A DNA stretch of 64,000 nt, taken from IMG/VR virus record IMGVR_UViG_3300014325_000010, positions 33,130-97,129 of that record. One strand, written 5' to 3'. The notes beneath the pieces are model-generated. The model was not told the origin of the DNA. It made no database searches and worked only from the letters and a program-made list of their open reading frames with translations. Within the stretch, counting starts at the first letter, position 1; each line of letters starts with the position of its first letter. Of this stretch, positions 58,144-59,327 are shown piece by piece. The stretch comes from a virus. The position numbers and the translations under genes were made by a program.

Positions 58144-58805
58144 ACTGATCCGGTTTGTGATTTGGATCCCATCCAAATCACAGAATCGGGTCACCCAGTA
58201 ACACTCCGTGTTACTGGACTTCGTTGTACTGGATTAGTCATTTTCCGTGATAGTATCATGTATTAAGATCGAGTCAACTATCTCGAAAGTTCCAATGAAA
58301 TAGAGCGAGTCATCTTCACCGAAAGTCACCTGTGGCATGTGCGAGTCATTCATCTCGAAAGTTCCACTGACCCGAGTCGCAGACTCGGGTCACCCAATAA
58401 CACGGAGTGTTATTGGATTAGCCAAAGTGTCGAAGAGTACCAATGAATCGGAGCTGATCCGGTTTGTGATTTGGATCTCATCCAAATCACAGAATTGGGT
58501 CATCACTGCGTTGTAGTGGATCAGTCATTGCATAGGTGGGCACCACTAGTAGATAACGAGTCGTATGGACTGAAAGTTTCAACTGATCCGAGTCGCAGAC
58601 TCGGGTCACCCACTACAACTGCGTTGTAGTGGGTCAGTCACCTAGTTCGATAGTTACAATGAAATAGATCGAGTCAACCGGAGTGAAAGTCACATATTAA
58701 ATGTGAGAGTCATATCACAACTGATCCGGTTTGTGATTTAGATGTGATCCAAATCACAGAATCGGGTCACCCACTACAACTGCGTTGTAGTGGATCAGTC
58801 ATAAG
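58144..58805. repeat. Five copies of a composite multi-hairpin element (about 60-100 nt each): ACTGATCC + hairpin A + GGGTCACCC + hairpin B + (G/A)TCAGTCA, with compensatory stem changes. A sixth truncated copy lies at 59244-59297.
   Basis: Unit starts about 58144, 58368, 58453, 58582, 58720. Hairpin A variants: tgtgatttggat-NNN-atccaaatcaca, tacgatttggat-ctt-atccaaatcgta, ccgagtc-gca-gactcgg. Hairpin B variants: ccagtaacac-tcc-gtgttactgg, ccaataacac-gga-gtgttattgg, ccactacaac-tgc-gttgtagtgg. Confidence 0.8.
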
Positions 58806-58869
58806 GGTTGATAGCAACATTGACTGATACGACTCAAACCGTAGTGTGAGTACCATGCTGGCAGATCCC

Positions 58870-59218
58870 CTGAACCAATATTGATCTAATCAATATTGGT
58901 TCAGTGGCACTTAAAAGAAATTTTTGCCCAAACTCATTTTCTACTTTTCTTGCCTTCCAATCCAAGCTATACTAAGAGTTACCAAAGCGGTAGGCTCGCC
59001 CCGAGACTATCGTGTATCCCGACGGGGATAGCACTTGGTGTTCTCTCCAGTTTCTCCCAAAGACTCTCGAAGAGAACGGATTGGGCTTGGTGATCTAAAC
59101 GATTGTTCTCAAGTCGTTTAGATCATTCAAGTCTAGTGGGCCGAAGTAGTTGCTAGTCCCAATTATTTCGGCTCACCAATCCAAATTTCCAATTGAAACG
59201 AGTTAACTCGTTTCAATT
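58870..59218. repeat. Three long perfect palindromes upstream of the primase-helicase gene
   Basis: 58870-58904 ctgaaccaatattgat-cta-atcaatattggttcag. 59093-59125 gatctaaacga-ttgttctcaag-tcgtttagatc. 59191-59218 aattgaaacgagtt|aactcgtttcaatt. Confidence 0.85.
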
Positions 59219-59327
59219 AGCTCTTACACGGAGGACTACCGTGAACTGATCCGGTTTACGATTTGGATCTTATCCAAATCGTAGAATCGGGTCAACTGTT
59301 TTAATCTCATGACAACGGATTAAACCC

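Follow-up and report, generated by a model that had tools for sequence, protein, structure and literature searches.

Hairpin units upstream of a phage primase-helicase gene as possible palindromic amplifications of a half-site in a 36-nt array

Introduction

What kind of element is a cluster of hairpins whose arms change from copy to copy and still pair, lying directly upstream of a phage replication gene? The question is raised by a 64,000-nt stretch of viral DNA (positions 33,130 to 97,129 of the IMG/VR record IMGVR_UViG_3300014325_000010; hereafter the window), which is part of a 112-kb contig from an uncultivated tailed phage (ENA ERZ27252489). The original prediction, made from the letters of the window, had described a composite multi-hairpin element with compensatory base changes, and had proposed small structured RNAs, a replication origin with hairpins, or a novel repeat family. 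We examined 71.6 kb of the contig, with a further contig of the same phage (L004) supplying gene calls and the extension past the window; three relatives were recovered via the primase (L001, with 70% identity; L002, 55%; and L003, 53%). Our leading, still tentative explanation is that the units are recent palindromic amplifications of one half-site (the A half-site) of a periodic array, generated and homogenized by template switching and recombination; they would lie in a replication-control region and be dispensable for the origin, and any role would be at the DNA level, as inverted-repeat or cruciform-prone sites.

Six Related Hairpin Units

We found six related units (U1 to U6), all read on the + strand and all within 58143-59297, in agreement with the predicted number of at least six composite copies. 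U1 (58143-58240) carries a long hairpin A and variant 1 of hairpin B (loop TCC), has part of an additional 3′ arm, and ends in GGATTAGTCA; U2 (58367-58424) has a short hairpin A (a perfect 11 bp), variant 2 of hairpin B (loop GGA), and the end GGATTAGCCA; in U3 (58453-58527), the long hairpin A is followed by just the 3′ arm of hairpin B variant 3, and the unit ends in GGATCAGTCA; U4 (58582-58640) combines the short hairpin A with hairpin B variant 3 (12 bp) and ends in GGGTCAGTCA; and U5 (58720-58801) has a long hairpin A with one A/C mismatch, hairpin B variant 3, and again the end GGATCAGTCA. U6 (59244-59297), located in the 5′ untranslated region (UTR) of the primase gene, consists of the long hairpin A only, without hairpin B and without a 3′ flank; it contains one exact copy of the iteron CCGGTTTAC (see below) and is flanked by AACTG direct repeats. 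The arms of the long hairpin A are as predicted, tgtgatttggat/atccaaatcaca in U1, U3, and U5 and tacgatttggat/atccaaatcgta in U6; the alternative hairpin A (ccgagtc-gca-gactcgg) is indeed present in two copies, U2 and U4; and the three variants of hairpin B are perfectly paired, as claimed. The proposed architecture (flank, hairpin A, junction, hairpin B, and 3′ flank) is complete in U2, U4, and U5, and in U1 with its extra arm; U3 and U6 are incomplete. Unit start-to-start spacings are 309, 106, 161, and 525 nt, and the architecture differs between units. There are exactly four copies of the junction CGGGTCACCC in the 64 kb, all of them inside units, and this 1.16-kb block carries 11 of the 44 perfect hairpins of the window (stem ≥9, loop ≤12).

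Folded as single-stranded DNA, the units are far more stable than dinucleotide shuffles (z = -5.1 to -8.9; 0 of 200 shuffles as good). The minimum-energy fold of the + strand RNA consists of two side-by-side hairpins: the first is the long (22 pairs, one bulge) or the short (11 pairs) hairpin A, and the second is hairpin B (10-12 pairs), the loops all being 3 nt. The flanks had also been predicted to pair with each other and give a three-way junction. This outer complementarity exists: ACTGATCC/GGATCAGT form terminal inverted repeats in U3 (where the first base is G, not A) and U5, and variants of them occur in U1, U2, and U4. However, ACTGATCCG pairs also with CGGGTCA directly 3′ of hairpin A, and since this pairing competes with the outer flanks, the three-way junction is an alternative and the two hairpins are the main fold; the junction was seen in the U5 minimum and the U3 and U4 centroids (DNA parameters), and in minus-strand folds.

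The block lies, as predicted, upstream of a primase-helicase gene, which Pfam identifies as PrimPol-VapE. The 2.3 kb upstream of this gene, which had been described as gene-free, are nearly so: the sole open reading frame (ORF) called there is one of 37 codons with a GGAGG ribosome-binding site (57993-58106, + strand; L004 gene call), just upstream of U1.

U1 to U5 Lie in a 36-nt Periodic Array

The sequence around the units is periodic. Array 1 (57085-57560, + strand) contains ~13 units of exactly 36 nt with the consensus GATCGAGNCA-N8-GANAGTNNCA-N8 (spacings 36/36/37). Array 2 (58241-58855, + strand), in which CGAGTCA replaces CGAGGCA, is a second copy of this periodic array; it is built of 18-nt half-units, a B type (..AGTTCCA) alternating with an A type (..CGAGTCA), and Tandem Repeats Finder gives a period of 36. 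From 58241 to 58855, all segments between the units consist of such 18-nt half-units, except one of 17 nt and one of 19 nt. A logo of 51 units from the window, L001, and L003 shows that ~17 of the 36 positions are conserved and the N positions random; the A motif of the array is GATCGAGGCA.

Each of U1 to U4 stands in place of one A half-unit, as does an expanded A slot at 58856-58909 (+ strand), which holds a perfect 16-bp hairpin of unrelated sequence with a 3-nt loop (58870-58904) and ends in ..CAGTGGCA; U5 covers a B and an A slot. U1 to U5 and this additional hairpin unit all end in phase with the array (..AGTCA, ..GCCA, or ..GGCA). What is conserved in the units looks like the A motif, inverted and direct (ACTGATCC(G), CGAGTC/GACTCG, (C)GGGTCA, and GG(A/G)TCAGTCA), and the unit ends ACTGATCC and GGATCAGTCA are likewise inverted and direct versions of an A-like motif; the interiors vary in sequence and consist of perfect palindromes, each with a loop of 3 nt. 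For example, the short hairpin A is GATCCGAGTC plus its inverse GACTCGGGTCA, and its 5′ arm includes the array-2 core CGAGTC. The long hairpin A has the same outer palindrome with another perfect palindrome at its center. U4 can be read as a single 13-bp palindrome (ACTGATCCGAGTC-GCA-GACTCGGGTCAGT) with hairpin B inside it after GGGTCA, and with GGGTCA duplicated; the palindrome is thus split, and ACTGATCC therefore has both a local and a distal partner. The palindromes are nested, and the combinations of hairpins are mosaic between units.

Covariation Between Copies and Template Switching

The original prediction had taken the covariation between copies as a strong signature of selection on secondary structure. 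Pairing is indeed preserved. In the alignment of the long hairpin A, 98.9% of the cells are paired and two pairs changed on both sides; for hairpin B the figures are 100% and three pairs, which 2 of 500 shuffles reach. Watson-Crick pairing survives every difference between complete hairpin B copies and, with a single exception, those in hairpin A. The copies are paralogues in one genome, however, and they show patterns that template switching produces, so the covariation is weak evidence for structural selection. Template switching during replication leaves multi-base compensatory changes, inverted loops, and inserted stems, and it can build stems and repair them with no selection acting at each step (PMC8794818); we observed perfect arms, multi-base changes in both arms, and a loop inversion: the hairpin B loop is TCC in U1 and GGA in U2, and the two copies differ at two positions when compared as reverse complements vs. 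five when compared directly. Hairpin A of U5 is also nearer to that of U1 in the inverted (reverse-complement) reading, and none of 79 seed hairpins in the window is extendable through a single mismatch. The conserved leader next to the units (see below) contrasts with them in having G-U pairs and helices of variable length.

The units thus share with template-switch (quasipalindrome) mutations the perfect arms, multi-base changes in both arms, an inverted loop, and nested or extended stems (PMC8794818). A difference is that the events in that study were reconstructed along phylogenies of RNA genes, while ours are paralogues. As neither the ancestral sequence nor a donor template was recovered, the fit is consistent with template switching and is not proof of it.

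Under our preferred explanation, the palindromes would nucleate at the A half-sites (GATC-GAGTCA) of the 18/36-nt array. A stalled replication fork would lead, through a template switch, to inverted copying and to palindromes with perfectly complementary arms; unequal recombination between copies would then produce the mosaic combinations of hairpins. Fork stalling is plausible because the array is probably protein-bound. Together, template switching and recombination would account for the “compensatory” differences, the inverted loop, the nested palindromes, and the mosaic hairpins. With less confidence, we infer that the units may act at the DNA level, as inverted-repeat or cruciform-prone versions of the putative protein-binding half-site of the array; they would be accessory at most, because close relatives replicate without them.

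Distribution of the Units and of the Array

The upstream regions of the relatives share a common order: a zinc-ribbon ORF, CATAGGTAA repeats, the 36-nt array, an iteron cluster, a promoter, a leader, and the primase gene (the zinc-ribbon ORF, the CATAGGTAA repeats, and the array were read in L001 and L003). In the window, the zinc-ribbon ORF (56829-57005, + strand; 58 aa, four cysteines), which is kept in L001 and L003 and has neither a Pfam family at the curated cut-off nor a PHROG match, ends where the noncoding region starts. It is followed by five copies of (C)ATAGGTAA(A) (56989-57100, + strand), a motif found at the equivalent place in the relatives.

None of the three relatives has hairpin units upstream of its primase gene, and the -35 element follows the last iteron at ~57-115 nt in the relatives vs. 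~1040 nt in the window. The rest of the 71.6 kb contains no further copies. The pattern TCGGGTCACCCA-N17-TGGRTYAGYCA, which allows any hairpin B sequence, had no match in the JGI metagenomes or IMG/VR, nor did the exact 24-nt pattern of the long hairpin A in IMG/VR. The hairpin block is therefore an insertion of array material that is private to this phage, and its absence from the relatives and from two collections argues against both a conserved RNA family and an essential origin. The units look like recent duplicates, and young ones; copies of the long hairpin A have 95% mean column identity, the B hairpins of U4 and U5 are identical, and another assembly of this phage stops within the repeat. 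L001 offers an independent parallel, one palindromic expansion on its own A variant GGATCGTAG (CTACGATCC|GGATCGTAG).

The looser pattern ACTGATCCG-N(8-38)-CGGGTCA gave more than 120 single chance matches in a scan of viral contigs; it was too loose, and loci L006-L125 were kept solely as random controls. Querying IMG/VR with the primase alone gave no match. A metagenome search with a primase alignment yielded 80 loci, none of which exceeds 47% identity or contains the array (looking in them for periodicity of a generic kind was uninformative). Against GenBank phages, blastn with the region gave no match, and tblastn with the primase gave <60% identity for every record, the best listed being 27-37% over at most half of the protein.

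The array itself is more widely shared. Its motif and position are conserved in three phages (window, 57085-57560 and 58241-58855; L001, 541-1740; L003, 1860-2660), with ~13 to 33 units and no genes called within it; it is absent from L002 within 10 kb upstream and from the 80 more distant loci. The motif is constant where the iterons differ between phages, which suggests that the array has a separate, more conserved binding partner than the protein that reads the iterons. Nothing comparable was found in the literature on 36-bp periodic arrays beside phage primases. Scanning the genome collection for three TCGAGRCA at 36-nt spacing gave only unrelated tandem or coding repeats, and no host or prophage. 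Three unrelated bacterial loci (L174, L205, and L220; chance matches) contain near-identical 35-37-nt tandem repeats, which look like candidate type III antitoxin-like or other RNA repeat arrays.

The restricted distribution also bears on whether the units are miniature mobile palindromic elements inserted repeatedly, similar to miniature inverted-repeat transposable elements or to repetitive extragenic palindromic (REP) sequences, which we regard as very unlikely. Such elements could explain the 8-nt terminal inverted repeats ACTGATCC/GGATCAGT, the 5-nt direct repeats at U6 (AACTG) and at an insertion in the leader (TGGGC), and the position of U6, which lies outside the array and disrupts a conserved upstream ORF. 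The copies are confined to 1.16 kb, however, with none elsewhere in the 71.6 kb, IMG/VR, or the JGI metagenomes; among the units, direct repeats that might be target-site duplications flank U6 only, the ends of U1 to U5 being the ..CA phase of the array itself, in which no independent duplication is legible; the inserted hairpins are unrelated in sequence; and no transposase-like family was found among the screened ORFs (a set that excludes many small ORFs and ~40 kb of the contig). REP sequences and bacterial interspersed mosaic elements (BIMEs) are clustered noncoding palindromes, imperfect to perfect, with conserved bases at the stem foot and variable interiors, have hundreds of copies dispersed over a chromosome, and are associated with a transposase, RAYT (REP-associated tyrosine transposase). 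The units resemble them in being clustered palindromes with a conserved foot and a variable interior, and differ in lying within 1.16 kb of one phage; no RAYT or IS200/IS605 TnpA-type transposase was among the screened ORFs.

Probable Replication Origin and Replication Gene

The gene downstream of the block (59328-61649, + strand) encodes a 773-aa fusion of PrimPol (Pfam PF09250) and a VapE/superfamily 3 (SF3) helicase (PF05272, E = 1.6e-61), with matches to PHROG helicase/primase families. Its sole sequence relative of solved structure is Rep1-DNA of the Staphylococcus aureus pathogenicity island SaPI1 (PDB 7PDS), to which it is homologous at E = 2.3e-36. Judged from its sequence, the protein is a likely initiator-helicase.

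Hairpins next to such a gene had been proposed as a replication origin, for which an iteron/AT-rich cluster at 57560-57910 is the better candidate. This probable origin core contains CCGGTTTAC/GGTAAACC iterons in both orientations around an AT-rich stretch; array 2 lies between it and the promoter and leader of the primase-helicase gene. Exact CCGGTTTAC occurs five times in the cluster (57737-57903), and U6 has the only exact copy outside it in the 64 kb; U1 to U5 have none, so the hairpin block itself does not show the iteron-origin pattern. The iterons are 8-9 nt long; the window and L002 share GGTTTACC/GGTAAACC, L001 and L003 have GGTATACC, and the position of the cluster upstream of the promoter is conserved in all three relatives. 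It is usual for the iterons of an origin to change in sequence while keeping their position. In SaPIs, the AT-rich region of the origin is flanked on either side by iterons to which an SF3 initiator-helicase binds (PMC9371898); here we find an adjacent SF3 Rep homologue, iterons in two orientations around an AT-rich stretch, and positional conservation. Because of the iteron layout, its conserved position, and the SaPI-like arrangement with a Rep1-homologous protein, the replication origin is probably at 57560-57910 and not in the hairpin block.

The system resembles SaPI Rep1/PriRep5 in its Rep1 homology and in the fused primase-helicase layout of PriRep5, and also in the short two-orientation iterons around an AT-rich stretch beside the gene (PMC9371898). 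It differs in that the phage origin is upstream of the gene, while the SaPI origin is immediately downstream, and in the length of the iterons (8-9 nt vs. 5-6 nt in SaPIs); the phage moreover adds the 36-nt array and, in this phage only, the palindrome block, for which no SaPI counterpart has been described.

That the hairpins are themselves an origin or auxiliary origins, with extruded or single-stranded stem-loops loading the PrimPol-SF3 protein as has been proposed for pRN1 and BIP-1, appears quite unlikely. pRN1 (ORF904) does have a prim-pol plus SF3 protein and a hairpin-rich noncoding segment beside its gene, and a similar arrangement has been suggested for Bordetella phages BIP-1/BPP-1, so the domain logic matches; pRN1 needs an intact ~100-nt stem-loop beside the replication gene, in which the integrity of the stem counts more than its sequence (PMC4234260). 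Moreover, U6 holds an exact iteron, and the short hairpin A pairs a pentanucleotide-like core with its inverse (GAGTC/GACTC). On the other hand, the three relatives, which lack the units, keep the iteron/AT-rich cluster at the homologous place, and the units are recent, variable in composition, and, in U1 to U5, without an exact iteron. The pRN family conserves its one ~100-nt stem-loop despite sequence drift, unlike the six young, variable units, which stand beside a separate iteron cluster. The conservation of structure across relatives that a pRN1-type stem-loop origin would show was also not found, the units being private to the window and the relatives having at most one unrelated palindrome (L001 968-1007). 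The ori/crr and alpha protein of P4 are another likeness, with a multifunctional primase-SF3-DNA-binding protein acting on short direct and inverted repeats, and a second, distant cis repeat region (summarized in PMC4234260). P4 differs in its Toprim-type primase and in having octamer repeats rather than a 36-nt array. We know of no description of hairpin amplification in P4.

Alternatively, the units may be structure-specific sites, consisting of a hairpin of any sequence and a foot motif (ACTGATCC / CGGGTCA / GGATCAGTCA), that are read by a phage protein on single-stranded DNA or RNA (e.g., loading or priming sites of the PrimPol-SF3 protein); we consider this unlikely. If true, such sites and the 36-nt array would make up an undescribed multi-hairpin replication-control module in a clade of uncultivated phages that selects for hairpins throughout the genome.

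The sign of the GC skew flips near 57-59 kb; since the G+C content shifts at the same place, the flip is no usable replication signal. The enrichment of GATC in the region is only about twofold.

Promoter, Leader, and Start of the Primase Gene

Alignment and a promoter scan place a promoter-like site of the primase-helicase operon at 58941-58973 (+ strand). It reads TTACTT-N17-TATACT/TATAAT in the relatives, and the spacer to TATACT is 21 nt in the window. TTACTT-N16/17-TATA(A/C)T is also found on the + strand before other early/middle genes (window, 61900-61933; L002, 5173 and 7107).

The site is followed by a structured 5′ leader (58975-59243, + strand; L001 2470-2646, L003 3430-3573, L002 9783-9963). 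The leaders of the relatives are ~150-190 nt long and end in CACGGAGGACTACCGTG; that of the window is broken by two private hairpin insertions, at 59087-59141 (flanked by TGGGC direct repeats) and at 59189-59226. With these removed, RNAalifold on the four phages gives 33 pairs, 11 of them changed on both sides, with G-U pairs present. In this folding model the leader behaves as a selected RNA; no Rfam family matches it, which makes it a possible new cis-regulatory RNA.

Toward its end, the leader of each relative carries a short GTG-initiated upstream ORF (uORF) of 9-22 codons after a strong GGAGG; the stop of this uORF overlaps the weak TTG/GTG start codon of the primase or lies close to it (loci compared: window 59230-59330, L001 2633-2712, L003 3560-3600, and L002 9948-10003). 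Stop and start overlap in L001 (TTGA) and L003 (GTGA), and the uORF stop is 7 nt before the start in L002. This layout suggests that the two reading frames are coupled by termination and reinitiation. In the window, the GGAGG and GTG-initiated uORF (59230-59249, + strand) is cut by the first bases of U6 to Met-Asn-stop; the truncated uORF stops 78 nt before the primase start, and the gap between the TTG and the stop of a second mini-ORF, which begins with the ATG at 59309, is 4 nt.

Hairpin Excess and the Case for Transcribed Hairpins

The window as a whole is rich in hairpins, with 44 perfect ones vs. 3.4 in shuffles, and the relatives are similarly enriched. Outside 57.0-59.3 kb the density is 0.50/kb, vs. 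0.13/kb in 109 arbitrary viral contigs, which places the window in the top 3%. Examples are found at 16083-16121, 39131-39166, 61953-61990, 62536-62577, and 64012-64054 (L004 14685-14727), and many lie right after stop codons. One subfamily, GATTCCAAT...ATTGGAATC, recurs at 63089, 64772, 65498, and 69618 with variable loops. The primase ORF has five hairpins inside it; in-frame insertion of palindromic elements was considered and rejected for these, which are not insertions. A comparison of fold energies between strands for the 44 hairpins gave means of +0.7, -0.1, and -2.2 kcal/mol in three regions. In this clade, hairpins may be selected at the RNA or DNA level, or replication may be unusually prone to template switching.

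It is possible, if somewhat unlikely, that the units are transcribed + strand RNA hairpins belonging to a phage-wide system of stem-loops at gene ends and in intergenic gaps, which would act in processing (e.g., by RNase III on the 22-bp stem), as 3′-end stabilizers, or as read-through attenuators; the 37-aa ORF would then have U1 to U5 in its 3′ UTR, and U6 would be part of the primase leader. Several observations that favor these RNA hairpins also weigh against our explanation by template switching. First, the long hairpin A is ~8 kcal/mol more stable on the + strand than on the minus strand because of G-T/G-U pairs, part of this advantage being the T-G pair (TGATCC/GGGTCA) that keeps a GATC site. 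Second, 12 of 26 perfect hairpins between 49.3 and 71.6 kb (outside the noncoding region) lie at stop codons or in intergenic gaps. Third, the primase gene contains a perfect 14-bp palindrome (61066-61093) for which L001 (4444-4471; 12 of 14 pairs) and L003 (5356-5383; 10 of 14 pairs) have a palindrome of another sequence; this hairpin lies in the conserved helicase part and covaries at the expense of changes in the amino acids (VKKFDIELLQ / VNQFDLELIQ / VQQFDLELLG), and the richness of the clade in hairpins hints at selection on hairpins, possibly at the RNA level. Finally, U6 lies downstream of the promoter-like site and a ribosome-binding site; it at least is probably transcribed, because its neighbors are all on the + strand and it is inside the primase 5′ UTR. 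Three further points count against template switching: no donor copies of the hairpin arms or interiors occur elsewhere in the 71.6 kb, the direct repeats AACTG (U6) and TGGGC (leader insertion) are also expected from transposition, and no array-binding protein was identified, so that the DNA-level role is our inference.

Other properties of the units do not fit with RNA hairpins. Their loops are all 3 nt and their upper stems are perfectly Watson-Crick paired without G-U, unlike those of the leader; one loop is inverted; the mismatch of U5 would be a G-U pair on the minus strand only; the hairpins are not followed by U-tracts; the T-G “wobble” in TGATCC/GGGTCA goes together with retention of the GATC site; and the units are not conserved in the relatives.

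The gene layout is as follows. Recognizable genes include those for a tape-measure protein, a portal, and a large terminase; the structural genes are on the minus strand to ~48 kb, and from 48.4 kb nearly all genes are on the + strand (to 71.6 kb, all called genes except three near 49.7-53.9 kb). Tandem repeats are also found elsewhere in the window. For example, a perfect 18-nt repeat (TCGACCGTTGCGCTCGGC, 5.9 copies) lies at 50200-50305 within an ORF of the minus strand. The number of copies is not constant between assemblies, the ENA contig of this phage being shorter here by 72 nt (four copies). The segment 50840-52060 has no called gene and a raised G+C content of ~0.55, and contains the tandem repeats GTAGGAAACC (x2.9, at 50934) and CGACCGACTGATC (x2.7, at 51664). 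The G+C content at 50-56 kb differs from that of the rest of the window, which suggests a mosaic module.

Comparison with Known RNA and Repeat Families

We also compared the units with known RNA families. An Rfam scan of the 64 kb, the check that the original prediction had called for, gave no match at the gathering score, and a permissive scan of 56900-59400 gave only matches resembling miRNA precursors (18-20 bits vs. cut-offs of 38-68). ARAGORN found no tRNA or tmRNA. The suggestion of a novel repeat family is therefore the one that stands, as the units are a genuine family without Rfam, tRNA, or CRISPR (clustered regularly interspaced short palindromic repeats) identity. That they are discrete small structured RNAs is not supported: no promoter or terminator signal frames the units, and the relatives lack them. 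The block had rightly been called not CRISPR-like. CRISPR arrays have near-identical direct repeats of 23-50 nt, regularly spaced and with unique spacers, whereas here the unit architectures differ, the spacings are irregular, and the “spacers” are 18-nt periodic half-units; no Cas family was found among 34 ORFs scanned against Pfam or PHROGs (within the 71.6 kb examined, which leaves ~40 kb of the 112-kb contig uncovered).

Most improbable of all, in our assessment, are small RNA genes or anti-defense decoys (e.g., mimics of CRISPR repeats or of type III antitoxin repeats). Stable repeated hairpins in a phage noncoding region would suit this idea, and ToxI repeats have a 36-nt period, as does the array around the units. 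The hairpins are private to this phage and without an Rfam match, however, and with their 10-22-bp stems and 3-nt loops they do not resemble the usual hairpins of CRISPR repeats. A type III ToxI-like array was rejected, since the period is exactly 36 nt but only ~17 of the 36 positions are common and the rest random, whereas antitoxin repeats are near-identical tandem repeats of ~34-45 nt. The ORFs scanned against Pfam or PHROGs at 52.0-63.5 kb included no ToxN or Cas family, and the Pfam/PHROG matches downstream of the array gave no ToxN/AbiQ-type gene, the origin and the PrimPol-VapE gene being there.

Two further candidates were tried and rejected. Intrinsic terminators (G+C-rich hairpins with a U tract behind them) are not enriched, with three terminator-like sites in 3 kb vs. 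2.1 expected; only hairpin B of U1 resembles one, weakly, and the other units have no T run. Hairpin promoters of the N4 type have a 5-7-bp stem and a 3-nt loop and are used by a giant virion RNA polymerase; the loops here are also 3 nt, but the stems are 10-22 bp. The two largest ORFs in the part of the genome examined encode the tape-measure protein and a protein with three weak PHROG matches, not an RNA polymerase.

Implications

If the units did arise by template switching and recombination, they call for caution: perfect “covariation” among paralogous hairpins can come from the replication machinery and is not proof of a structured RNA. They would also be a compact natural example of palindromes nucleating on a repeated, probably protein-bound motif beside an origin. 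The more durable leads are those common to several uncultivated phages, namely the 36-nt array, the SaPI-like iteron origin with a fused PrimPol-SF3 protein, the structured leader with a uORF-coupled start, and the excess of hairpins.

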